Origin: an uncultured bacterium
GTDB taxonomy: Bacteria; Patescibacteriota; Minisyncoccia; UBA6257; 2-01-FULL-56-20
Direction of reading: 5' to 3'
Length of the DNA stretch: 64,000 nucleotides
NCBI GenBank assembly: GCA_963718575.1
Contig: OY970358.1
Span: 578,172 to 642,171 of the forward strand
Shown: positions 4,001 through 43,862 of the stretch, piece by piece
How positions within the stretch are numbered: the stretch's first letter is position 1
How the letters are laid out: each line of letters starts with the position of its first letter
Position numbers and translations under genes: made by a program
Notes under the pieces: model-generated
Databases searched by the model: none
Told to the model about the DNA's origin: nothing
Seen by the model: the letters and a program-made list of their open reading frames with translations, nothing else

Positions 4001-4494
4001 CTTAAAAGTCCGTTATTAACGATTTTTTGGAACTCGCTCATATTGTACACGCCGATAAGAGCGCGTTCGGGATTGGCTTGGTCTTTGAGCCATTTCATCG
4101 CGGCAGGTTTGTAGCCGCCTCCGTCTAGTAAGATGATTGTCGGTACGCCGATTTTCATAATGTTAAAAAGCGTAAAGGGATATTTTTCGTCCACGCTTCC
4201 GGCACTCTGTTGCCACTTGCACTCAATAATAAGCCCATCGGGAAACTTCTCTTTGTTAAGGATGAGAAAATCGCACTTGCGCTGGGTTTCGTAGATGCTC
4301 GTACCACACGGCACTTGGGTAGCAAATTGCTTTCCACCTACCGCTTTTCTATTGGCGAACACTTGTTCTTTATGATCCCAAAACCTCTCATATCCCTCGC
4401 GCTTCAATATGTCTTCAATAAAACCCTCAAGGCGATTGCCTGTGTGATTTGCGCGTCCGCCGCCGTTAGGAGTAGTTTCGGATAATAAGCTCAT
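3997..4494 (-). CDS. Putative type II restriction endonuclease, a small PD-(D/E)xK nuclease, probably partner of the Dam-type methyltransferase.
   Basis: The start (MSLLSETTPNGGG) overlaps the methyltransferase stop by about 29 nt. The motif CDFLILN...IIECKWQ fits a D...ExK nuclease core. Confidence 0.45.
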   Translation of the reverse strand: MSLLSETTPNGGGRANHTGNRLEGFIEDILKREGYERFWDHKEQVFANRKAVGGKQFATQVPCGTSIYETQRKCDFLILNKEKFPDGLIIECKWQQSAGSVDEKYPFTLFNIMKIGVPTIILLDGGGYKPAAMKWLKDQANPERALIGVYNMSEFQKIVNNGLLS

Positions 4495-5347
4495 TTTCCT
4501 TGCCCCGTTGGTTCGCTTTGCATGACACCATGCGCGAAGCCGATACCTTTTCAATAGTATAGCCCTTGTAGAGCTTCCGCACAAAGGGGGTGTCGGAATT
4601 GGATAGCATGAACTTCGCGCCTTTGTCGTCTATGCGCTTGGCGAACGCCGCAAGCGCAATATGCTCCGCATCCCCGAAACCGCCGCCGGAATAGCCGCTA
4701 TAGGTTTCATGGTATGGCGGATCGAGATAAAAGAAGTCGCCCACGCGCGGCTTCAATTGGTCAAAGTTTTGTTGCACGATGTCCTTACCCTCTAAGAGCT
4801 TCGCGCACGCCCATAGGTTCGGCTCGTCCACGATAAGGGGGTTTTTGTAGTCGCCCATCGGCACATTGAAAAAGCCGCTCTTATTCACGCGATACAAGCC
4901 GTTATAGCAGGTCTTATTGAGATAGATGAAAAGCGCGGCAATAAGTACGGGGTCTTTTTCCTTGAACAGTAAAAGGCGAGCTTTCGCGTAGAACTTTGCA
5001 TCATGCTTTTTCTCCATGATTTTGAGCTGTGCAATAACCCTATCAACGTGATCACGCACCGATTGGAACGTAACGATAAGATGAAAGTTGATGTCGGATA
5101 GGAACGCCTTTTGCGGTTGCACCGCGAAGAACAACGCACCGCCGCCTAAAAATGGCTCATAGTATCGCCCGTACTCTTTTGGCATACGCTCCAACAGATC
5201 GGGGAGTATTGAACGCTTGCCACCCACCCATTTGAGAAATGGACGCGCCGCCGTTTTGGTTTCCGGCTTTTGCTCATTCGCTATGCTGGTAAGGACTTCA
5301 TCGAACGCTCCAACTAACGGCTTGTGCATTTTTGGTTCTCGGCTCAT
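4466..5347 (-). CDS. Dam-family N6-adenine DNA methyltransferase (alpha group).
   Basis: FLKWVGGKRSILPDLL and EPFLGGGALFF (motif I, FxGxG) and YLDPPY (motif IV, DPPY) read directly from the ORF. Confidence 0.85.
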   Translation of the reverse strand: MSREPKMHKPLVGAFDEVLTSIANEQKPETKTAARPFLKWVGGKRSILPDLLERMPKEYGRYYEPFLGGGALFFAVQPQKAFLSDINFHLIVTFQSVRDHVDRVIAQLKIMEKKHDAKFYAKARLLLFKEKDPVLIAALFIYLNKTCYNGLYRVNKSGFFNVPMGDYKNPLIVDEPNLWACAKLLEGKDIVQQNFDQLKPRVGDFFYLDPPYHETYSGYSGGGFGDAEHIALAAFAKRIDDKGAKFMLSNSDTPFVRKLYKGYTIEKVSASRMVSCKANQRGKENELIIRNYS

Positions 5348-6261
5348 TTGGTTAGTGCTTTATATTTGAGTGTATCATTCTGGCTCACGTTCCGCACGAC
5401 CTCTGCGAACGTGTTGCTCAATTCGCCCGTCCGCACGTTAAAGCGGTAGGTAAACTCATCAACGTATCGCTGTAGGTGCTTCCGGCTCATGTGATGATAC
5501 GTTCCGATATAGCCCCGCTTGAAGATAGCCCAAAAGCTCTCGATGCCGTTTGAGTGGATGTTGCCCTTGCGGACGTACTGCCCGCGCTCATGCCGCACTA
5601 CCTCGTGCTTGAACAGTTTGCCGATGCTCTTGTACGAGCCGAAGTTATCCGTGTAGAGGTTTGAGCCGATTTTCATGTTCTCGATGATGTGCTGTTCTAT
5701 CGTCCGCATCTTGGTATCGCTCAACACTTCCGCTTTAAGCGTGCCGCCGCGCTCCAACATTCCGAACACTGGGGCTTTCGTAGCGATGCTACGTCCTTGC
5801 GTGTGTGCCGTCCTCTTGTTCGCGTGTTTGTTTTTTTCCTTGCCGCCCACATACGTTTCATCCATCTCGATAGTGCCGAACAACTGCCCCTTATTCTGTA
5901 TCATCGCCTTGCGGATGCGATGATCCATGAACCACGCCGTCTTTTGCGTTACGCCTACCTGCGCCGCAAGGGAGATGGACGAGATGCCCTTTTTCGCGGT
6001 GGTCAAAAGGTAGATAGCGACAAACCACTTTTGCATCGGCACTTTGCTCTCGCCGAATATGGTCTTGGTCTTTATCGTGAAGTCCTTTTTGCACTTCGCG
6101 CAACGATACCGCTTGCCATCGGCGAAATGGTTGATTTTGTTGAAGCCACAATGCGGGCAATACTCGCCATCCTTGAAGCGGATTTGCTCGAAGTATTTGA
6201 TGCACGTCTGCTCGTCCTTGAAGTAGGACACGAACTCTAAGAGGGTTTTGAAGTTTGTCAT
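5344..6261 (-). CDS. IS1595-family transposase (ISXO2-like DDE).
   Basis: N-terminal zinc ribbon (CPHCG...CAKCKK) followed by a DDE domain. Likely start is MTNFKTLL at 6261 with a promoter immediately upstream. The stop overlaps the methyltransferase start (ATGA). Confidence 0.8.
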   Translation of the reverse strand: MTNFKTLLEFVSYFKDEQTCIKYFEQIRFKDGEYCPHCGFNKINHFADGKRYRCAKCKKDFTIKTKTIFGESKVPMQKWFVAIYLLTTAKKGISSISLAAQVGVTQKTAWFMDHRIRKAMIQNKGQLFGTIEMDETYVGGKEKNKHANKRTAHTQGRSIATKAPVFGMLERGGTLKAEVLSDTKMRTIEQHIIENMKIGSNLYTDNFGSYKSIGKLFKHEVVRHERGQYVRKGNIHSNGIESFWAIFKRGYIGTYHHMSRKHLQRYVDEFTYRFNVRTGELSNTFAEVVRNVSQNDTLKYKALTK

Positions 6262-6267
6262 ACCTCC

Positions 6268-6296
6268 AGTGTATAGGATCAGAATAGGGTTGTCAA
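6268..6296 (-). promoter_or_regulatory. Sigma70-like promoter TTGACA-17-TACACT, 6 nt upstream of the transposase ATG. Suggests a leaderless transcript.
   Basis: Reverse complement of 6291-6296 is TTGACA. Reverse complement of 6268-6273 is TACACT. Confidence 0.4.
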
Positions 6297-6392
6297 GTCC
6301 GAATTGGGGATAACTAAATGGGGACATAATAGGGCTATTTTTTCCAATCTTGAACTATTGATCGATTTTGATATGTAGTATAATGTAAGCAC

Positions 6393-18853: not shown

Positions 18854-19591
18854 ATGAAAAATGACACTGTGGCGGGCAAGAATGCCGGGCAGGCAAACAA
18901 GGCAACGATCTGGTTCATTGTCGGGCTTATCGTGCTTGTCACGGCGGGCGTGATCGTCGCGGGCGCATACTCGAGCGGTACGGCGGCGAACAACGCGAGC
19001 AGTACGTTCGTTTCAACGGCCGCTCCGGCGCTCACATCTGCGGATTGGAGCGAAGGCAATCCGAACGCGAAGGTGACGCTTATTGAATACGGCGACTTCG
19101 AGTGTCCGGCATGCGGAGAATATTTCCCGGTCATGCAGCAGTTGCTGCAGAACTACAGCAGCACGGTGCTGTTCGTATTCCGCAATTTCCCGCTCACCAC
19201 CATCCATCCGTTTGCAGAGATCAGCGCACAGGCGGCGGAGGCGGCCGGGCTTGAGGGCGGCGCGTCGAAGTACTGGGCGATGCACGACCTTCTTTATATA
19301 AACCAGAACAATTGGTCCACGAACAGCGCGCTCACTCCGGCGCAGGTCGTCTCTCAATATTTTGACGGATACGCGCAATCGATCGGCCTCAATGTGAGCA
19401 CGTTCAATAACGATATCAACGCAACATCGGTATCGCAAAAGATCCAAAATGATATTACCGGCGGTACCGCCGCGCAGATCGGCCACACGCCGACGTTCTT
19501 CTTGAACCTGCAGCAGATCCCGAACCCCACCGGACTTTCGAATTTTGAAAATACGTTGAACGCCGCAATCGCGTCGTCAACGGCGCAGTAA
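18854..19591 (+). CDS. DsbA-family thiol:disulfide oxidoreductase. Membrane anchored.
   Basis: FECPACGEY CxxC motif in a thioredoxin-fold context. N-terminal transmembrane helix. Confidence 0.75.
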   Translation: MKNDTVAGKNAGQANKATIWFIVGLIVLVTAGVIVAGAYSSGTAANNASSTFVSTAAPALTSADWSEGNPNAKVTLIEYGDFECPACGEYFPVMQQLLQNYSSTVLFVFRNFPLTTIHPFAEISAQAAEAAGLEGGASKYWAMHDLLYINQNNWSTNSALTPAQVVSQYFDGYAQSIGLNVSTFNNDINATSVSQKIQNDITGGTAAQIGHTPTFFLNLQQIPNPTGLSNFENTLNAAIASSTAQ

Positions 19592-22912: not shown

Positions 22913-25900
22913 ATGACTAAGAAATCTTCGCGGACGCCGCATTTTCTTGAGGGCGAGATAAAGCTTCCAGAGATGGAAGAAAAAGTGCTGGCGTTTTGGG
23001 ACGAGCATAATATTTTTGAGAAAAGTTTAGAACAGACCGCCGACGGCGCGCCGTTCACTTTTTACGACGGGCCGCCGTTCGCGACGGGACTTCCCCACTA
23101 CGGGCATATTTTGGCGTCCACGATAAAAGATGTCGTGCCGCGCTATCAGACGATGAACGGCCGCTTCGTGCGCCGCCGGTGGGGATGGGATTGCCACGGG
23201 CTTCCGATCGAAGAGCTCGTCGAGCGTGAACTCGGCATCTCCGGCAAAAAGCAGATCGAAGCGGTCGGCATCAAAAAATTCAATGAGACATGCCGGAGCT
23301 TTGTATTGAAATATGCCGCCGAATGGCGGCAAACGGTCCGCCGCATCGCGCGCTGGGTGGACTTCGATGATTCGTATAAGACGATGGATACCGATTTCAT
23401 GGAATCCGTATGGTGGGGATTCAAACAGACGTACGACAAGGGCTTGATCTATGAGGGCCGCAAGGTGTTACTCTATTGTCCGCGCTGCGAGACGCCGCTC
23501 TCGAACTTCGAGGTCGCGATGGATAACAGCTATAAGGATGTCACGGAGGAGTCGGCATATGTGAAATTTCACTTGAAAGCCGGTCAAAAATTCGGAAACT
23601 ATACGGCTAAGGATTCTGTTTACCTTGTGGCGTGGACGACGACTCCATGGACATTACCGGGAAATGTCGCACTTGCGGTAGGGAAAAATATTTTATATAC
23701 CGCACTCCGCATAAAAGACGTGCAGAAACTTTATATTGTTGCAAGTGAACTTGTTCAAAAAGTTTTTAAAGATCAAGAGATTGAAATTGTTCATGGAGAG
23801 ATAAAAGGAAAGGATCTGATTGGCCTCGAATACGAGCCGCTCTTTACTATTCCTATACTGCAATCCGAAAAATCTTATCAGGTCTATGCTGGAGATTTTG
23901 TAAATACTGATGACGGCACGGGCATCGTACATATCGCACCGGTGCACGGCGAGGACGATTATACATTAGGCGTAGCAAACGGCTTGCCGATCGTGCCGCT
24001 GCTCGACGAGCGTGGAATCTTCACTGATAAGGTGCCGGAGTTTTTACGCGGACAATACTTTAAGAAAGCGGATAGGCTGGTGATCGAGGATTTAGAGAAG
24101 CGGGAACTGCTTTTCAAAAAAGAAACCATCACGCATTCCTATCCGCACTGCTGGCGATGCGGCACGATGCTCTATTACAACGCGCTCCCGGCGTGGTTTG
24201 TGAACATTCAAAAGATAAAGCCGGGGCTGCTCGCATCGAACGAGGCCGAGATCAGCTGGTTTCCGGAGCACCTTAAGCACGGCCGCTATCAAAAGAGCGT
24301 GGAGGCCGCGCCCGACTGGAACATCTCGCGCAATCGGTACTGGGGCAATCCGGTGCCGGTATGGAAATGCGGCGATTGTGGACATGTCGAAGCGGTGGGG
24401 AGTATGGACGAGCTTTCAAAGAAGGCGGGCGGTTCGAAGAATAGCTATTGGGTAATGCGGCACGGCGAGGCGGAGAGCAATATGTTCGACATCCTCGACT
24501 CCGGCCAGAGAAAATATCTTCATCTCACGCCGCGTGGCAAGGAGCAGGTGCTGACTTCGATAGAGAAGTTCAAAAAAGAGCTGGCGCATGAGGGCAAGAA
24601 GATCGATGTCGTCATCGCGTCCGACATCACGCGCACGCAGGATACGGAACATATCGTGGCAAAGGTGCTGACGGGAGAAAAGGAGATCGCGCACGAAGGA
24701 TTGGAAGAGATCCATCTTGGGCCGACGCTCACCGGCTATCGCGATGAAAAATATGCACAGATGTTTCCCAGCTACGAGGCGCGTTTTGAGAAACAGCCGG
24801 AGGGAGGGGAGACGTTACGTGATCTCCGCGCTCGCGTGTGGAAATTTTTGAAAGAGTGCGAAGAGATCTACGCGGGAAAGAATATCCTGCTCGTGACGCA
24901 CGAATATCCTGCGTGGATGCTTTTCCAAACTGCGGAAGCGTGGAGTGAGAAGCGTGCGATCGAAGAAAAGAAAAAGCGTGATGGTGATTTTATTAGCTTC
25001 GCCGAGATTCGAAAATTGGATGTGAAAGTGGTGCCCCGCGACGACACGGGCGAGGCGGATCTCCATCGGCCTTACATCGACGACATCACATTCCCGTGCG
25101 AAAAGTGCGGCGGTGTGATGACGCGCACGCACGGAGATCTTCGATTCATGGATCGAAGCAGGCTCAATGCCGTTTGCGGAGTACCACTATCCATTCGAGA
25201 ACAAGGAAGAATTCAAAAAACATTTCCCTGCGCAGTTCGTGTCAGAATACGTCCCGCAGACGCGCGCGTGGTTCTATCTTTCGCACGTCGTGTCGTATAT
25301 TTTGTTCGGCCATGCGCCGTTCGAAAATGTGGTGACGACGGGAAATGTGCTTGGGGATGATGGTTTTAAGATGAGCAAGTCGAAGAAAAATTTCCCCGAT
25401 CCCCAATTGGTGATCGATAAGTTCGGCGCTGATAGCCTACGTTTTTATCTCATGGGTTCTGTTGCAATGCAGGCAGATGATCTGACTTTTTCCGAGAAGA
25501 GCGTCGAGAGCGTGTATCGCAAAGTGGGGATGTTGCTTACGAACGTCTATAAATATTTCGCCACGTATCGCGGGGAGGTGGCGGGAGAAATTTCCGGCGG
25601 TGGTGAAGCGACCAACGCCGCCGCAGACGACAATATTCTCGACCAGTGGATCACCGCGCGGACTGAAGAGCTGGCGGATATCGTGACGCGCTCGCTCGAC
25701 ACGTACGACACCGTCCGCGCCACGCGCGCGGTCCAGGAATACGTGGACGACCTCTCCACGTGGTATCTGCGCCGCTCGCGCAAGCGTAAGGATGCGGGGT
25801 TTTTCAGGACGATGCAGGCGTCGCTTTTGACGACGAGCCGGGTGCTTGCGCCGTTCATGCCATTTCTCGCGGAAGCGCTCCATGCGGAGCTTGCCGCGCA

Positions 25901-26477
25901 CGATGCGCCGGCGTCGGTGCATTTGGAAAAATGGCCGGAGATAGCGTTCACGTTGCCGGAAAAAGAGCGAGCGGAGCTGATGGACAGCATGACGGAGATC
26001 CGTCGTCTTGCGAGCCTCGGACTTTCTGCCCGTGCGGAGGCAAAGATCAAGGTGCGTCAGCCGCTCGCAACGATGACCGTGCGCGGCGCGGAAGCGACGA
26101 TCCGCGACGAGCGCCTCCTCGCCATATTGAAGAACGAAGTGAATGTGAAAGAGATCGTGTTCGCGCCGGAGCTTGCGAACGAGGTCGAGCTCGACACGGT
26201 CATCACGCCCGCGCTCCGCGAAGAAGGATTGGTCCGCGAAGTGGCCCGCATGTTCCAGGAGCTTCGTCAGAAGGCCGGGCTCGAACCGAAGGATAGGATT
26301 GTTGCGATGATGGAGCTACCAGAAAAGACGATGCAAGTGATCGACAGGAATGAATCTTCATTTTTAAAAGACATCGGTGCGACCGTGGTGGAATTCGGAC
26401 ACTCCGATAAATTCATTGCAGAAGAGATAGCCAAGCTCGAAGGGGAGGATGTATGGGTGGCGGTGCGGAAGGGGTAG
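22913..26477 (+). CDS. ileS: Isoleucyl-tRNA synthetase. It carries an inserted histidine-phosphatase domain and an apparent single-nt frameshift at about 25128-25140.
   Basis: HYGH (HIGH), the CP1 editing region, WKCGDCGH and then DLHRPYIDDITFPCEKCGG. After the frame change the ORF continues as EIFDSW.., MPFAEYHYPFEN and KMSKS (FKMSKSKKNF). Listed as two ORFs, 22913-25360 and 25167-26477. Confidence 0.85.
24437..25050 (+). other. Histidine phosphatase (PGAM-like) domain inserted within IleRS.
   Basis: YWVMRHGEAESN (RHGE), LTPRGKEQ, IDVVIASDITRTQDTEHIV, QPEGGETLRDLRARVWKFL and ILLVTHEYP match the branch-1 histidine phosphatase motif order. Confidence 0.6.
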
Positions 26478-27876: not shown

Positions 27877-28524
27877 ATGCAGACAAATAAGACGGTCTAT
27901 TTTGTTCGTCATGGCGAAAGCGCCGATAATGCCGCGCCGGTATTTCAATCCCCGGATTCGCCATTAACTCAAAAAGGACGGATGCAGGCGGAAAAGATCG
28001 CTACCCGCGCGAAACATCTTTCTTTTGATGCGTTCATCACGAGTCCCTTTCGGAGGGCGGAAGAGACAGCGGAGATTATTTCAAAAGCCACTGAGAAAAC
28101 GCCGGAGCGATCAGCGCTTTTTGTCGAGCGAACAAAGCCGACGAGCGTGAACGGCAAACTTCATACCGATGAAGAGGCGAGCGAGGTGTGGCGAGAGTGG
28201 AATGAAAGTTTATACACACCGGGTATGCGAGTCGAAGATGGGGAGAACTTTGACGACATCATTACACGCGCCGATAACGCGCTTGCTTTTCTTAACGTGC
28301 GTCCCGAAAAATCCATCCTCGTTGTGACGCATGGATATTTTCTTCGAACGATCATCACCCGCGTCTTGATGCAGGAGCTGCTTTCCGCCGAAGCATTCAA
28401 AAAATTTCAGCGCATGGCATCTATGGAAAATACCGGACTAAGTGCTCTCCGTTACGAAGGAAACACACCGGAAGAAATGAGATGGCGTCTTTGGATCTAT
28501 AATGACCATTCACATTTAGGATAA
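27877..28524 (+). CDS. Histidine phosphatase family protein (PGAM-like), free-standing.
   Basis: VYFVRHGESADN (RHGE) and ILVVTHGYFLR. Confidence 0.7.
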   Translation: MQTNKTVYFVRHGESADNAAPVFQSPDSPLTQKGRMQAEKIATRAKHLSFDAFITSPFRRAEETAEIISKATEKTPERSALFVERTKPTSVNGKLHTDEEASEVWREWNESLYTPGMRVEDGENFDDIITRADNALAFLNVRPEKSILVVTHGYFLRTIITRVLMQELLSAEAFKKFQRMASMENTGLSALRYEGNTPEEMRWRLWIYNDHSHLG

Positions 28525-28527
28525 TTA

Positions 28528-29283
28528 ATGTTCACTGACGAAATAAAATTACGCTGGGCGGCGCTTTTAACGAATCCTGATTGGTATCTTGCGATTCTTC
28601 CAGAGTTGGAAGAGTTGCGCAAACAATGGGGTGGAAAGAGTGATGCGGAGCAGGAGCCGCTAAAGATTAAACTCTATGATTTCTTCGCCGAGCATCTTGT
28701 GGCCGGTGATATTGCGCTCGATAACAATCCTGCTAATGCGGACGCGGAGCGCAAGCCCATCGACACTATTATTATCCATCACACAAGCAATCCGCCCGGC
28801 ATGACGAAAGAGTTGCTTTCCGGGATGGAGCTCATTCGCCTTTATGCGCCCGAGTTCGCCGCGCCCAAATATGAGGCTGATAAAAAGATGAAGGGGCGAC
28901 CTATCTGCTCGGGCCATTTTCGCGATGGTCACCAAGTTTTTTGGCCGTATCACTGGTTTGTGCGGCGCGATGGCACCGCCGAGCGTTTATTAAATGATGA
29001 TGAAATTGGTTGGCAAGCTGGAGATTGGGATATCAATTGCCGGAGCGTTGCCATTTGCTTTGATGGCGATTTTGAAAATAGCCGTCCGTCCGATATTGAG
29101 CTTTCCGCGGCGGCAAGTATCATCAAAGATCATTATCCGCAGGTTGCGCGCGAATGCATCTTTGGCCATCGCGAGATTAATTTAAAGACGACCTGTCCGT
29201 CGAATCTATTTCTCTCTGATTCGCCGCGTCGCGGTTGGAAGGACGATTTACTGGAACTTTTATTTCGTAGTAATCCCGCTTAA
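28528..29283 (+). CDS. N-acetylmuramoyl-L-alanine amidase (Amidase_2 / PGRP fold).
   Basis: IIIHHTS, WPYHWFV, NCRSVAICFDGDF and FGHREI..TCPS match the zinc-ligand pattern of AmpD/PGRP amidases. Confidence 0.55.
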   Translation: MFTDEIKLRWAALLTNPDWYLAILPELEELRKQWGGKSDAEQEPLKIKLYDFFAEHLVAGDIALDNNPANADAERKPIDTIIIHHTSNPPGMTKELLSGMELIRLYAPEFAAPKYEADKKMKGRPICSGHFRDGHQVFWPYHWFVRRDGTAERLLNDDEIGWQAGDWDINCRSVAICFDGDFENSRPSDIELSAAASIIKDHYPQVARECIFGHREINLKTTCPSNLFLSDSPRRGWKDDLLELLFRSNPA

Positions 29284-40569: not shown

Positions 40570-41100
40570 ATGAATATAAAAAAAACTGCCGCGAAGCTAC
40601 TGCTGATTCTCCTTATTGGATCTTCTGCGGCGTTGCCGATGGTTTCGTTCGCCGCTCAGAATCAAAGCGGCGGGGCTGTTTCATATTCCGCCCCCTCGCT
40701 TTGGCCCACCGGATTCTGGGGGCCGATAGTATGGTGCACGGGGGACTATCTTTCGGGTACGGGCAATAATCAGATAAACGGTCCCGGCGGCCAGCCGCCC
40801 GCGTGCAGCAATCTCTGTGACCTTGTCGGTACGTTCATCAATATTATTTATCTCGCGATGTCGATCGCAATTTTCATCATTGCGCCGATATCGGTTGCTG
40901 TGGGCGGAATCATGATCATGTTCTCCGGCGCAAACCCCGGGTTGCTCGAGCAGGGAAAGAAAGTCTTGACCGGCGCCGTCATCGGACTTGCGATCGTCCT
41001 GTGCTCGTACCTCATCGTGAACACCGTTTTGTGGGCATTCAATATCACCGCAATCGGAGGATTCAATGGCAACGCGTCCGCCTGTTCGATATCATCATGA
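40570..41100 (+). CDS. TrbC/VirB2-like pilin-topology protein, paralog 1.
   Basis: Signal peptide, then helix FINIIYLAMSIAIFIIAPISVAVGGIMIMF, loop SGANPGLLEQGKK, then helix VIGLAIVLCSYLIVN. Confidence 0.4.
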   Translation: MNIKKTAAKLLLILLIGSSAALPMVSFAAQNQSGGAVSYSAPSLWPTGFWGPIVWCTGDYLSGTGNNQINGPGGQPPACSNLCDLVGTFINIIYLAMSIAIFIIAPISVAVGGIMIMFSGANPGLLEQGKKVLTGAVIGLAIVLCSYLIVNTVLWAFNITAIGGFNGNASACSISS

Positions 41101-41981
41101 GATCTTTATTTAAAAGGAATAAAAACATATTTCTTTTCGTTCTTTCCTTAGCGCTTATTGTTTTTGCTTTACCCCTCGTACTTCCGGCACTATTTTCTCC
41201 TTCCTCCGCATCCGCGCAGACGCAGATTACGATTGCGACGAGCGTCCCCGGTACCTATGGTGCCGCCGCATCGGGGGGTGCGCCCGGAGCATTTGTCGCT
41301 GACTTCTATTGGTTCGCGTTGATCATCGGCGGGGTGATCGCGTTCGGAGTGGTCGTCTACGGCGGAATAAAATACATGACCTCTGCCGGAAATCCTTCCG
41401 GGCAAAGTGATGCAAAAGAATGGATCGAGGCGGCGATTTTGGGAATACTGTTACTTGCGGGCGTTTACTTTATATTGAGCGTCATCAATCCCCAGCTGCT
41501 CAACCTCAACCTGCCGGGACTTACGGCGGTGAATATTTCGAGCATCCCCGTGCCGGGAAATCCCGGTGGTGGTGGCAATAGCCCGACCACTCCGCCAACG
41601 GGTTGCGCGGGTGGAACATGCGTCACGCTTCCGAATTGCACGCAAACAAAAGCGACCACGGGTGCGGGAGCAATCAATTGCGGTGGCACGCCCGCCATCG
41701 CCGCAGTGTTGAATTGCGTCAACCAGGCTGACCCTAATTACACCGTGTCTGAAGGATATCCGCCGGCGGTGGATCATTCCGATCCTGGCCATAACACCGG
41801 ATGTGCGATCGATGTGCATGTAAGCAGTTGCGCCGCTGGCGCGGCATTCATGAGTGCCGCCCAGAGCTGTGGCGCCTCGAAAGTATTAAATGAGTATTCA
41901 AATTGCGGAGGAAATATTTATTCCCATACGACTGGCGGCAATATTCATATCGATGCCCCGAAAGGCCAAGGAGGCTGCTGA
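41097..41981 (+). CDS. Pilin-topology protein (paralog 2) fused to a C-terminal M15/LAS-type zinc peptidase domain.
   Basis: Signal peptide, helix, loop MTSAGNPSGQSDAKEW, helix. A Gly/Pro linker follows. The C-terminal region contains HNTGCAID (H-x6-D) and a later His. ATGA overlap with the previous gene. Confidence 0.4.
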   Translation: MRSLFKRNKNIFLFVLSLALIVFALPLVLPALFSPSSASAQTQITIATSVPGTYGAAASGGAPGAFVADFYWFALIIGGVIAFGVVVYGGIKYMTSAGNPSGQSDAKEWIEAAILGILLLAGVYFILSVINPQLLNLNLPGLTAVNISSIPVPGNPGGGGNSPTTPPTGCAGGTCVTLPNCTQTKATTGAGAINCGGTPAIAAVLNCVNQADPNYTVSEGYPPAVDHSDPGHNTGCAIDVHVSSCAAGAAFMSAAQSCGASKVLNEYSNCGGNIYSHTTGGNIHIDAPKGQGGC

Positions 41982-41990
41982 TATAACCCC

Positions 41991-42512
41991 ATGAAAAAAA
42001 TTTTTATCATCTCTCTGCTCCTCTTTGTTGCCATTCTTGTGGGTATGATTTGCTTCTCTCGGATAAAAATATCTTCGGCTCAGACGGCAACGATAAGTAA
42101 CCCCGTACTTCCCGCAACTTCCATTCCTGATTATTTGGCCAACGCATCTGTAGTTTTTGGTAGTAATCCGACAGGGGCGACGCTCCAAATCGGCACTACA
42201 CAGGGGACGGTGACCATGAATAATTTTTATATCCCCGATCCCGCCGTGGATACGTCGCAATATATCGTCATAAAGTACACCCAAAATTATCTCTTCGATT
42301 ACGATCCGACCGACAGCAGTTTCTGGATCGGCGTGAGTGGGATTCCGTTCAGCGCCTGGCAAAGCACCGCCGAACAGGATTTTTTGACGACACTGGGGAT
42401 AAGCCAAGGAGACGCATGTAAATTGGACGTTGTGGAGGGCGTCATCTACGACCCGCAAAATCCCGACGACGGCCTGTCCTTCCCATTGAGTTTTTGTGAT
42501 ACGACGCAATAA
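41991..42512 (+). CDS. Secreted or membrane-anchored hypothetical protein inside the pilin-like array.
   Basis: ORF track. N-terminal hydrophobic helix. Confidence 0.4.
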   Translation: MKKIFIISLLLFVAILVGMICFSRIKISSAQTATISNPVLPATSIPDYLANASVVFGSNPTGATLQIGTTQGTVTMNNFYIPDPAVDTSQYIVIKYTQNYLFDYDPTDSSFWIGVSGIPFSAWQSTAEQDFLTTLGISQGDACKLDVVEGVIYDPQNPDDGLSFPLSFCDTTQ

Positions 42513-42539
42513 GCGTCCGGATTTGGTATAATGAATTCC

Positions 42540-42899
42540 ATGATCAAGACGGTGAGAAAAAATGGGGTGATAGGAGGAACTGCCTTATACTCATTGTTCA
42601 TTTCCGGGATTGCTCATGCGCAATCCCAGTCCATCACGCTTACTGACCCGCTTGGGGGAAATGAGACGTTTTTGAGCGTAGCAACCGCCGTGGGGGGGTT
42701 CATTTTTTGGGACATTGCCATGCCATTTTCAATTATTATGGTGCTCGTCGGTGCGTTTCAATTGATGACATCAGCTGGCGAGCCGGAAAAGGTTTCTCAA
42801 GGCAGGAAGACGATCATGTATGCAGCGATCGGATTTGCCATTGCGCTCATTGCCGGCGGTATTACCAATATCATTAAAAGCTTCATCGGCGTCTCGTAA
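42540..42899 (+). CDS. TrbC/VirB2-like pilin-topology protein, paralog 3.
   Basis: Signal peptide (...GIAHA), helix, loop LMTSAGEPEKVSQGRKT, helix IMYAAIGFAIALIAGG. Extended -10 TGgTATAAT lies 7 nt upstream of the ATG. Confidence 0.45.
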   Translation: MIKTVRKNGVIGGTALYSLFISGIAHAQSQSITLTDPLGGNETFLSVATAVGGFIFWDIAMPFSIIMVLVGAFQLMTSAGEPEKVSQGRKTIMYAAIGFAIALIAGGITNIIKSFIGVS

Positions 42900-42973
42900 T
42901 TGGCTTTTAAATGAAAATATGGGATACTAAGCATAATAAATGGTCGAAATAAAACGTTAAATTTCCATTTGTC

Positions 42974-43387
42974 ATGAAGAAAATGAAAATGTGGCTGACG
43001 GAGCATCCTCTTTCAAAGATATTAGGGGCGCTTTCCCTGAATCTTCTGTTTGTTCGGTTTGCCAACGCGCAAACGTTGCCGCCACCGCCGTCTCCTGTTC
43101 AGAACAGTACGGGGCTCATGAACGTTCTTTGTTCTTTCATCGCCTATTTCTTCTGGATAGTGATTATCATCTCGGTCATTTTTGTCCTTTATGCAGCGTT
43201 TTCCTATGTGACTGCAGGTGATGATACAGAAAAGACTACAAAAGCTCGCAAGACGCTCACCTATGCGGCTATTGGCATTGCGGTGGCACTCCTTGCCACT
43301 ACATTTCCGACGATCGTTGGAAGTATCTTCCCGAATGCGACACTATCACTGAGCCCTGGCCAAGTCTGCACCGTCTTCGGCGGCTAA
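42974..43387 (+). CDS. TrbC/VirB2-like pilin-topology protein, paralog 4.
   Basis: Signal peptide, helix FIAYFFWIVIIISVIFVLYAAF, loop TAGDDTEKTTKARKT, helix LTYAAIGIAVALLA. Confidence 0.45.
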   Translation: MKKMKMWLTEHPLSKILGALSLNLLFVRFANAQTLPPPPSPVQNSTGLMNVLCSFIAYFFWIVIIISVIFVLYAAFSYVTAGDDTEKTTKARKTLTYAAIGIAVALLATTFPTIVGSIFPNATLSLSPGQVCTVFGG

Positions 43388-43469
43388 GGTTGTCACGATG
43401 GGGCGGGTGTGATATCTTAAAACAGTACCTTAGAAAGGTCGAATACCTCTATAAAATCCATTTAACGTC

Positions 43470-43862
43470 ATGAAAAAAGTAATCAATTTTGCAAAGGAAT
43501 TCAGCCCGTCGATCATCGCGTTGGTCATCCCCGCGATGGCATTCGCGCAGAACCTTCCTCAGCCGGTTCCGCCGTCTGGAGTGAATGTCCCTCAGGGGAA
43601 CATCACAAGCCTGCAGTCGGTGCTTCAGCTCCTCTGCACGGTCTTCGCATGGGCATTCTATTTCCTCATTGTGATCGCCGTCATCTTCGTCATTGTCGCG
43701 GCCTTCCGCTACCTCACTGCAGCCGGTGAGCCGGAGAAGGTGAAGGAAGCGGGAAACACGTTGCTCTATGCCGCGGTCGCGATCGGCGTCGCATTGTTGG
43801 CTCGTGCCGTCCCGCTCGTCATCGGAAGCTTCCTCGGCGCAAGCGGAGTGAGTTCGTGTTAG
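43470..43862 (+). CDS. TrbC/VirB2-like pilin-topology protein, paralog 5.
   Basis: Signal peptide, helix, loop LTAAGEPEKVKEAGNT, helix LLYAAVAIGVALLA. Confidence 0.45.
   Translation: MKKVINFAKEFSPSIIALVIPAMAFAQNLPQPVPPSGVNVPQGNITSLQSVLQLLCTVFAWAFYFLIVIAVIFVIVAAFRYLTAAGEPEKVKEAGNTLLYAAVAIGVALLARAVPLVIGSFLGASGVSSC

Follow-up and report, generated by a model that had tools for sequence, protein, structure and literature searches.

The 64,000-nucleotide stretch of DNA analysed here (the window) is part of contig OY970358.1 from an uncultured member of the Patescibacteria. On its plus strand, at positions 41097-41981, lies an open reading frame (ORF) of 294 amino acids (aa) that joins a pilin of the kind found in type IV secretion systems (T4SS) to a C-terminal domain resembling zinc peptidases. 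The ATG is found at 41097 and the stop codon ends at 41981; the ATG overlaps the stop of an upstream pilin gene by 4 bp (ATGA). Public gene callers produce the same 294-aa product, labelled as 'Type IV secretion system pilin' in some cases and as 'hypothetical protein' in others. Public databases contain an identical protein (P0178) from four sources and on independent contigs; one of these contigs measures 881,652 bp, a length to be expected of a complete Saccharibacteria-type genome. The gene and its parts are as follows.

41097..41981, plus strand: complete coding sequence, 294 aa plus stop, for a VirB2-like T4SS pilin with a C-terminal Hedgehog/DD-peptidase-fold, zinc peptidase-like domain.
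41097..41216, plus strand: Sec-type signal peptide, aa 1-40, with a predicted cleavage site (hydropathy, charge count, model helix 3-33).
41283..41501, plus strand: pilin core, aa 63-135, with hydrophobic helices 63-95 and 100-130 and the loop KYMTSAGNPSGQSDAK (PF18895; predicted local distance difference test, pLDDT, 88-97; hydropathy).
41538..41597, plus strand: disordered Gly/Pro/Ser/Thr linker, aa 148-167, SSIPVPGNPGGGGNSPTTPPT (pLDDT below 50, composition).
41598..41678, plus strand: small Cys-rich module, aa 168-194, with C170, C175 and C181, and C195 at its border (family conservation).
41679..41978, plus strand: domain with the Hedgehog/DD-peptidase (LAS, M15-like) fold, aa 195-294.
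41775..41813, plus strand: HSDPGHNTGCAID, containing H227 (equivalent to H135 of Sonic hedgehog, Shh) and H232-x6-D239, the first two predicted zinc ligands (Shh H141 and D148).
41892..41894, plus strand: E266, predicted general base, equivalent to Shh E177 and invariant in 82 of 82 family members.
41940..41948, plus strand: N282-I-H284, the 'H-x-H' position, where H284 on a beta strand is the predicted third zinc ligand.

The N-terminus (MRSLFKRNKN...) looks like a signal peptide, with four Lys/Arg residues, then a hydrophobic core, and A38-S39-A40 directly before Q41. Next, according to hydropathy and the predicted model, come two hydrophobic helices that form a hairpin, and the short polar loop between them holds the only two lysines of the region. 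This order of signal peptide and hairpin is the layout of VirB2/TrbC-type pilins. A charge-free segment comes after the helices and ends in the linker. The Pfam family PF18895 (T4SS_pilin) matches aa 71-130 of the fusion protein (E 1.2e-5) at 25.7 bits against a cut-off of 26.6, and is matched by 44 of 46 full-length fusion relatives with a best E-value of 1.7e-12; longer family members (415-983 aa) likewise contain the PF18895 module. These sequence features place the N-terminal half with the VirB2/TrbC-type pilins of the T4SS and not with the pilins of type IV pili. Following the positive-inside rule and the example of known VirB2/TrbC pilins, the hairpin loop would be cytoplasmic and both ends would lie outside, making the peptidase-like domain extracytoplasmic. 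C-terminal processing is known for the TrbC pilin of RP4. Three further proteins, P0013 (618 aa), P0018 (612 aa) and P0113 (555 aa), contain four to six tandem matches to the pilin profile each and look like multi-pilin polyproteins.

In the AlphaFold model of the full-length protein the hairpin is predicted at pLDDT 88-97, the linker below 50 and the C-terminal domain at approximately 90-97. The overall predicted template modelling score (pTM) is low (0.49), which fits two modules that are placed independently of each other. When this model was compared to the PDB with Foldseek, no pilin stood out as a specific match to the hairpin, which for so simple a fold is uninformative.

Beyond the linker the protein is rich in cysteine, with 10 Cys within aa 170-294. 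In the small module that precedes the fold core, C170 and C175 are conserved in at least 90% of the family, weak EGF-like matches are found in 7 of 67 members, and the model places beta bridges at pLDDT 63-78. A DsbA/Thioredoxin_4-like gene is present elsewhere in the window (18854-19591, plus strand), consistent with disulfide formation outside the cytoplasm in a Cys-rich exported domain. The original prediction had described this ORF, at the same coordinates, as a protein of pilin topology followed by a Gly/Pro linker and a Cys-rich domain of about 170 aa. The coordinates, the two-helix topology, the linker and the richness in cysteine were all recovered. The pilin could be assigned more precisely to the T4SS type, and the domain proved smaller than thought: the C-terminal region measures about 127 aa (168-294), of which the fold core takes up about 100 aa (195-294).

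A word-indexed homolog search returned only four relatives, of which three measured 92-95 aa. An exhaustive profile search among 1.84 billion cluster representatives (50% identity) yielded 4645 matches. The search profile included the pilin columns of P0003, so that many of these matches are plain pilins and the ranking favours fusions; matches were accordingly re-sorted with a domain-only hidden Markov model. Among the best 153 representatives at least 81 have the C-terminal domain, which in nearly every case forms the very end of a pilin protein of 200-370 aa.

The domain is most closely related to Hedgehog N-domains. A profile built from 67 sequences matches 24 distinct PDB sequences, all of which are Hedgehog N-domains (Shh, Ihh, Dhh and fly Hh), at E-values of about 1.6e-4; a profile of only five sequences found nothing in the PDB. 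The best matches of the single sequence, a snake-venom metalloproteinase and the RuBisCO small subunit, have E-values of about 0.7 and were set aside as not meaningful. Alignment of profiles with hhalign links the family to an Shh fragment with a probability of 89.7% (E 1.8e-6) and pairs E219, H227, H232, D239 and E266 with Shh E127, H135, H141, D148 and E177, respectively. When 67 relatives were scanned one by one against Pfam, ten matched HH_signal (best E 2.7e-5), two Peptidase_M15_4, one VanY and one M15_3, all of them weakly. The window domain itself has no match at E<=1 to HH_signal (PF01085), VanY (PF02557) or Peptidase_M15_2/3/4, and reaches no gathering threshold.

The AlphaFold model of the domain, based on the 67-sequence alignment, has a mean pLDDT of 88.2 and a pTM of 0.83, and contains the LAS or Hedgehog/DD-peptidase fold (MEROPS clan MD, M15-like) with its central antiparallel beta sheet and flanking helices. 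Foldseek matches of the full-length model in the PDB are Hedgehog N-domains only, with probabilities up to 1.00. Over the structural alignment of the domain, the identity to Shh is 14-18%. The best matches among viral models (BFVD) are phage proteins named 'Peptidase M15A C-terminal', a cell-wall hydrolase and tail-associated proteins. The domain is a minimal, divergent and uncurated family of the LAS clan, which lies nearest to the Hedgehog N-domains and outside both PF01085 and the curated M15 families. We are highly confident that a LAS-fold domain is genuinely fused to a T4SS-type pilin. Curated models miss a whole family of putative hydrolases.

Conservation of the predicted active site was counted over 82 family members with overall identities of 25-60%. 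D239 (Shh D148, predicted zinc ligand) and E266 (Shh E177, predicted water-activating base) are kept in all 82, H232 (Shh H141, predicted zinc ligand) and H284 (predicted third zinc ligand) in 81, and H227 (Shh H135) in 80. The equivalence of H284 to Shh H183 is by motif position, as this residue falls outside the hhalign alignment; it sits in GGNIHID, on a strand formed by domain residues 116-119 of the model. The spacings H-5-H (H227-H232) and H-7-D (H232-D239) are fixed in 81 of 82 members. Position 282 is more variable, with a His in 51 of the 82 relatives, giving the canonical H-x-H, and an Asn in 26, the window protein included. A motif that is nearly invariant at such low identities is not a chance match, and by its sequence conservation the active site is under selection. 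In Shh the residues H141, D148 and H183 bind zinc while E177 is the water-activating base (PMC6027127).

The family also differs from Hedgehog proteins in this region. The site that binds two calcium ions in Hedgehog and bacHh (Shh E90, E91, D96, E127, D130 and D132) retains only the equivalent of E127, namely E219; the positions of D130 and D132 are taken by P222 and A224, and the segment of E90, E91 and D96 has no counterpart. Relative to Hedgehog, at least 12 aa are inserted between E266 and the H-x-H strand. The motif HNTGCAID with a downstream His, on which the original prediction of an M15/LAS-type zinc peptidase had been built, is located at aa 232-239 (nucleotides 41790-41813) and H284, and the family keeps this motif. 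Structure prediction, which had been proposed as a check, bears out the fold. The proposed likeness to VanY and endolysins can be refined, as Hedgehog N-domains are nearer.

Among species genomes of GTDB, a locus search with a 14-sequence alignment found the fusion in Candidatus Saccharibacteria (L003, L005, L006, L009), Liptonbacteria (L004, L008) and Jorgensenbacteria (L007, L010). The fusion is real, old and widespread, and represents an unannotated family in Patescibacteria. Such a fusion had been called unusual, which is true when compared to characterised T4SS pilins but not within the Patescibacteria. We also considered whether the database entries of 90-95 aa represent a gene for the domain alone. 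This was rejected: the entries begin at contig ends with the frame open into the pilin helix, as at L001, where no stop codon interrupts the frame up to the edge of the contig and the reading extends into the last part of pilin helix 2. The gene is broken in this way in several independent metagenome assemblies, at the end of helix 2 or in the linker (L001:1-490, L002:1-393; P0001, P0002, P0004, P0276). The point of breakage is the same as the point of cassette exchange described below, which suggests strain-level heterogeneity in the samples. Versions of the domain without a pilin, behind a single transmembrane helix, do exist (P0156, P0157, P0159, P0160). One of these, P0159 (180 aa), lies in an apparent operon (L011:7705-10543) that starts with a Peptidase_M23 protein (410 aa), continues with an unknown 343-aa protein and ends with P0159.

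The strongest functional argument is provided by the exchange of the C-terminal cassette. The tails that follow the pilin module were clustered among the closest whole-protein relatives listed, giving 31 Hedgehog-like (Hh-like), 23 SLT_3 lysozyme-like and 11 CHAP-like tails, several small unknown clusters, and 32 plain pilins. In the SLT_3 cluster 10 of the 23 proteins carry the Pfam label PF18896, and P0196, P0200 and P0213 score 28.0-30.8 bits against a cut-off of 27. The CHAP-like cluster shows recurrent weak matches to CHAP, NlpC/P60 and DUF6950 at E-values of about 1e-3. A protein of each kind, P0202 (SLT_3) and P0198 (CHAP-like), is found at the slot orthologous to that of the window: both loci have the order Lactamase_B_3, gyrA, SBP, 170-aa pilin, fusion, next gene and pilins, and locus L014 continues to xerC, rpsO and NYN, as the window does. 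GyrA of the P0202 and P0198 genomes is 90.9% and 89.9% identical to that of the window, against only 78.5% for L003, which does carry an Hh-like cassette. In a three-way alignment the mature pilin is near-identical from Q41 to about residue 165 (the pilin part has about 80% identity), after which the similarity ends entirely at the Gly/Pro linker. The pilin parts of P0202 and P0198 both score above the PF18895 cut-off.

As judged from these alignments and domain matches, a conserved carrier pilin has swapped its C-terminal, presumably enzymatic, domain among three unrelated folds. The window domain contains neither SLT nor CHAP; the SLT_3 and CHAP-like domains are found only in the cassettes of orthologs. 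The wall-cutting role that had been envisaged for the window protein gains independent support from the replacement of the Hh-like domain by lysozyme-like and CHAP-like domains at the same slot, although catalysis and substrate are reached by inference. It was also suggested to check whether orthologs keep the fusion. They do in the three lineages named above, and some genomes with about 90% GyrA identity carry an SLT_3 or CHAP-like domain instead. A further protein, P0054 (286 aa), has a C-terminal stretch that matches Glyco_hydro_15 (E 1.2e-8), but no more of that profile than positions 381-426 at its end; this tail may be either another cassette type or a spurious partial match.

The fusion gene is embedded in an array of pilin genes, whose other members in the window are listed below.

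40570..41100, plus strand: upstream 176-aa pilin paralog, translationally coupled to the fusion gene and at a conserved position in relatives.
41991..42512, plus strand: 173-aa protein that always comes after the fusion gene; it has a signal or anchor sequence but lacks any known domain.
42531..43862, plus strand: three small PF18895 pilin genes (42531-42899, 42974-43387 and 43470-43862), scoring 32.4, 36.4 and 36.4 bits against a cut-off of 26.6.

The gene order in the window is Lactamase_B_3, gyrA, SBP, pilin, fusion, 173-aa protein and three pilins. The fusion gene is thus surrounded by four pilin paralogs, three of which exceed the PF18895 cut-off, and together they form an array of five with one non-pilin gene in between. 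After the array, on the minus strand, come membrane proteins without known function and xerC, then rpsO, NYN and pnp, with recA and ftsK further on; the window is chromosomal and of housekeeping character. The same order is seen at L001-L006, L008 and L012-L016, and in all loci examined from Saccharibacteria and Liptonbacteria the fusion gene lies inside an array of 5-6 PF18895 paralogs. The upstream pilin (40570-41100) is extended at its N-terminus, before the hairpin, by about 60 aa with much Gly, Pro and Cys, and is 61-66% identical to its counterparts in L012 and L014. The 173-aa protein has counterparts of about 170-280 aa (L003:8348-8902, L008:1937-2461, L012:7907-8440 and L014:7908-8759), and its C-terminal 110 aa or so are conserved alike next to Hh-like, SLT_3 and CHAP-like cassettes. 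We considered it as a partner specific to the cassette, for instance an immunity protein, and rejected this idea because homologs follow the pilin whatever its cassette.

A second genomic context is found at L007, L009 and L010. Here a VirB4-like ATPase (P-loop_TraG, E 1.8e-26; AAA_10) is followed by two small genes, the fusion gene and a gene for a protein of about 390 aa, with dnaA nearby. This ties the fusion to the T4SS machinery, and the arrangement agrees with that of the T4SS clusters reported near the origin in Patescibacteria (PMC12102498). The three ATPases (L007:4067-5818, L009:4346-6133 and L010:175-1947) are 78-92% identical across metagenome-assembled genomes labelled Jorgensenbacteria (L007, L010) and Saccharibacteria (L009). 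Such identity is far above what is expected between classes and points to either a recent horizontal transfer of the T4SS module or mis-binned contigs.

Three other observations concern the window at large. Another wall hydrolase is encoded at 28528-29283 (plus strand), namely an N-acetylmuramoyl-L-alanine amidase (Amidase_2). The isoleucyl-tRNA synthetase gene looks interrupted (22913-26477, plus strand): the ORF at 22913-25360 (815 aa) matches positions 2-267 of the tRNA-synt_1 profile and then His_Phos_1 (aa 513-679), and the overlapping ORF at 25167-26477 matches tRNA-synt_1 positions 308-409 together with Anticodon_1 and DUF5915. A frameshift, the insertion of a domain or a splitting of the gene could each explain this; a separate His_Phos_1 gene is located at 27877-28524. 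Finally, an IS1595-family transposase (5344-6327) adjoins a D12-class N6-adenine DNA methyltransferase (4466-5347), together spanning 4466-6327 on the minus strand.

From these results we propose that the gene product is a specialised subunit of a Patescibacterial (Saccharibacteria-type) array of VirB2-like pilins. Export by Sec and removal of the signal peptide would leave the two-helix pilin core in the membrane with both ends outside, and the flexible linker of about 20 residues together with the small disulfide knot would place the domain of about 100 aa in the zone of the cell wall. There it would act as a zinc-dependent LAS-type peptidase, with H232, D239 and H284 as candidate ligands, E266 as the likely base and H227 assisting. 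It may cut stem peptides or cross-links of the peptidoglycan beside the site of pilin and T4SS assembly, and would in this way fill the role of the VirB1-type hydrolases of other T4SSs. The C-terminal module would be an exchangeable cassette, its place being taken by an SLT_3 or CHAP/NlpC-like domain on the same pilin in sister genomes. In our judgement it is quite likely that the domain is an active peptidoglycan hydrolase, and likely that the protein as a whole is a pilin-anchored peptidoglycan peptidase substituting for VirB1. The wall in question could be that of the cell itself or that of a host.

A number of points weigh against this proposal. On its own, the C-terminal sequence from the window has no significant match in Pfam, NCBIfam or the PDB sequences. 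The sequence link to Hedgehog is of moderate strength (E 1e-4 to 1e-6), and the best match in the PDB (4c4m, 4.3e-5) owes part of its E-value to the H-x-H region aligning to a His-tag; we therefore rely on the matches at about 1.6e-4 and on hhalign. The pilin columns in the search profile mean that the search says little on how frequent the domain is without a pilin. The window protein has N282 where the H-x-H motif has its first His. The Arg conserved in the SGYR-type motif of M15 carboxypeptidases has no counterpart, the family having TEAYPP there. We infer zinc binding and catalysis in this family from computation, that is from aligned sequences and predicted models. The enzyme status of the Hedgehog proteins themselves is debated (PMC6027127). 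Finally, no VirB4 or other T4SS machinery gene was found in the 64-kb window, either by tblastn with the VirB4-like and neighbouring proteins of L007 and L009 or by Pfam scans of large ORFs.

The alternative that holds up best, though we consider it unlikely, is that the protein is a weapon directed at the host, a version of our proposal in which the target differs. An enzyme-bearing pilin in, at the tip of, or released from a T4SS-type pilus would cut host peptidoglycan at the site of contact; the opened wall would serve attachment or uptake, and cassette exchange would be an adaptation to different host wall chemistries. Saccharibacteria live as obligate epibionts and need their T4SS and pilin array to grow on the host (Wang 2023), and a cassette type that differs between genomes with 90% identical GyrA is the pattern expected of host-interaction genes. 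The structural matches to phage tail, tape-measure and gp5-type proteins, which have M15-like domains for wall penetration, point in the same direction, and the assemblies breaking inside the gene are consistent with heterogeneity at the strain level. Against this, both the formation of filaments by PF18895 pilins and the packing of a pilus whose subunits have a 13-kDa C-terminal domain would have to be assumed. The fusion moreover occurs in Parcubacteria-type lineages of unknown host, and the stand-alone version with a single transmembrane helix beside an M23 peptidase has a housekeeping-looking context. In its boldest form, which we hold to be equally doubtful, the VirB2-like pilins would form an enzymatically armed filament, and a swappable cassette displayed on or released from the T4SS pilus would bore through the host wall. 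If true, cassette exchange would track host wall chemistry and the locus would be a host-range determinant of epibiotic parasitism.

Quite improbable is the idea of a housekeeping carboxypeptidase or endopeptidase (of the VanY, LdcB or MepA kind) for which the hairpin is a mere membrane anchor, with no role in pili or secretion. It would account for the lack of a T4SS ATPase in the 64-kb window, for neighbours such as gyrA, the SBP gene, xerC, rpsO and pnp, and for the stand-alone version following a Peptidase_M23 gene. It leaves unexplained why the gene is placed inside a conserved pilin array in all Saccharibacteria and Liptonbacteria loci examined, and why a VirB4-like ATPase lies two genes away at L007, L009 and L010. 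The pilin part is also conserved beyond the need of a simple anchor, being near-identical across genomes that differ in their cassette.

Still less probable is a non-catalytic, Hedgehog-like binding module in which zinc has a structural or ligand function, so that the protein would be an adhesin or a receptor-binding tip for wall peptides or glycans. The disputed peptidase activity of its nearest solved relatives, the Hedgehog signalling domains, fits this idea, as do N282 in place of His and the fact that no curated peptidase family was matched at threshold. A purely structural zinc site would, however, need neither E266, kept in 82 of 82 members, nor H227, kept in 80 of 82, and the domains that replace this one at the same slot are enzyme domains of the lysozyme-like and CHAP-like type. 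An artefact can practically be dismissed, whether it be a motif that arose by chance or a pilin gene falsely joined to a separate downstream gene by frameshift or misassembly: the 90-95-aa entries, which resemble C-terminal domains standing alone, result from gene calls cut off where contigs end, with the frame continuing into the pilin helix, four sources have the identical 294-aa ORF on independent contigs, including the one of 881,652 bp, and dozens of diverged full-length fusions exist.

Returning to the proposed wall-cutting pilin, its parts can be compared to several known systems. Hedgehog N-domains and bacHh (PF01085; Roelink 2018, PMC6027127) are the sole PDB proteins matched by the family profile, and share with it the H-x6-D motif, the last His and the residues that correspond to Shh E177 and H135. 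They differ in size (about 145 aa against about 100 aa here) and in having the calcium site that is absent here, and the identity to Shh is as low as 14-18%, whereas bacHh is more than 50% identical to ShhN (Roelink 2018, PMC6027127). Also, the window protein has its domain attached to a pilin and lacks a Hint or intein part. With the M15/LAS peptidases of MEROPS (VanX, VanY/VanXY, LdcB, the DD-carboxypeptidase of S. albus, MepA of M74, and the phage L-Ala-D-Glu endolysins of T5, Ply500 and LysB4) the domain has H-x6-D and a C-terminal His in common; it differs in being Cys-rich, in its position on a pilin and in matching no curated M15 model at threshold.

A functional analogy exists to the wall hydrolases of T4SSs (VirB1, and in Gram-positive systems PrgK, TraG of pIP501 and CwlT), whose role, the local opening of the wall for the T4SS, would be the same as proposed here. 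Those of Gram-positive systems are membrane-anchored and contain SLT and CHAP domains (PMC12102498), which are the same two types that we find as alternative cassettes. The window protein differs in having a putative zinc LAS peptidase in place of a lytic transglycosylase or CHAP domain, and a VirB2-like pilin as anchor in place of a simple transmembrane helix. No sequence homology exists between VirB1-type proteins and the window domain, so that the analogy is one of function only.

Patescibacteria are known to have VirB2-like arrays of 2-11 divergent pilin genes (PMC12102498), a description that the array of five paralogs with one non-pilin gene in the window fits well. The array of Southlakia epibionticum is essential and consists of genes for 103-185 aa without an enzyme (Wang 2023, PMC10633639). 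It is located beside virB4 and dnaA, where that of the window is beside gyrA. The papers on these arrays (PMC10633639; Quinonero-Coronel 2025, PMC12102498) describe only small pilins without an enzymatic C-terminal domain. In S. epibionticum ML1, however, the Hedgehog/DD-peptidase fold has been annotated in another protein: SEML1_0007 (1113 aa) is essential, adjoins VirB4, and has residues 951-1105 classed under 'Hedgehog/DD-peptidase' of ECOD, the best template being Shh 6n7g (Wang 2023, Table S2). SEML1_0007 is a multidomain protein and not a pilin, and it is likened to the window protein by structure-based annotation of the fold and not by direct alignment. Its presence in an essential T4SS cluster suggests that this fold is a recurrent T4SS accessory in Saccharibacteria. 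For SEML1_0006 the same table gives a pair of lysozyme-like domains and a single domain of the cysteine-protease type (Wang 2023, Table S2), so that the enzyme classes concerned have already been linked to the Saccharibacterial T4SS.

Also close are the pilin-SLT_3 (PF18895 with PF18896) and pilin-CHAP-like proteins, which have the same carrier pilin, locus and architecture and differ in the catalytic cassette. Precomputed Pfam annotation already shows the pairing of PF18895 and PF18896, whereas no Pfam model covers the Hh/M15-like cassette. Neither a pilin-hydrolase fusion nor cassette exchange is described in the literature that we searched, with incomplete coverage, for PF18895, PF18896/SLT_3 and Hedgehog DD-peptidase in combination with Patescibacteria. 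Most Patescibacteria with VirB2 lack VirB1, from which it has been argued that pilus biogenesis may not need VirB1 or that other hydrolases might substitute (PMC12102498); the T4SS and pilin array of Saccharibacteria are essential for epibiotic growth, and their function has been called completely unknown (PMC11665869, PMC10633639). Our results may offer an alternative to pilus biogenesis free of VirB1, in which wall cutting is built into one pilin of the array by means of an exchangeable cassette from three enzyme classes. The T4SS pilin, the LAS peptidase and the T4SS wall hydrolase were each known separately; what the window adds is a VirB2-type pilin that itself carries the putative enzyme.

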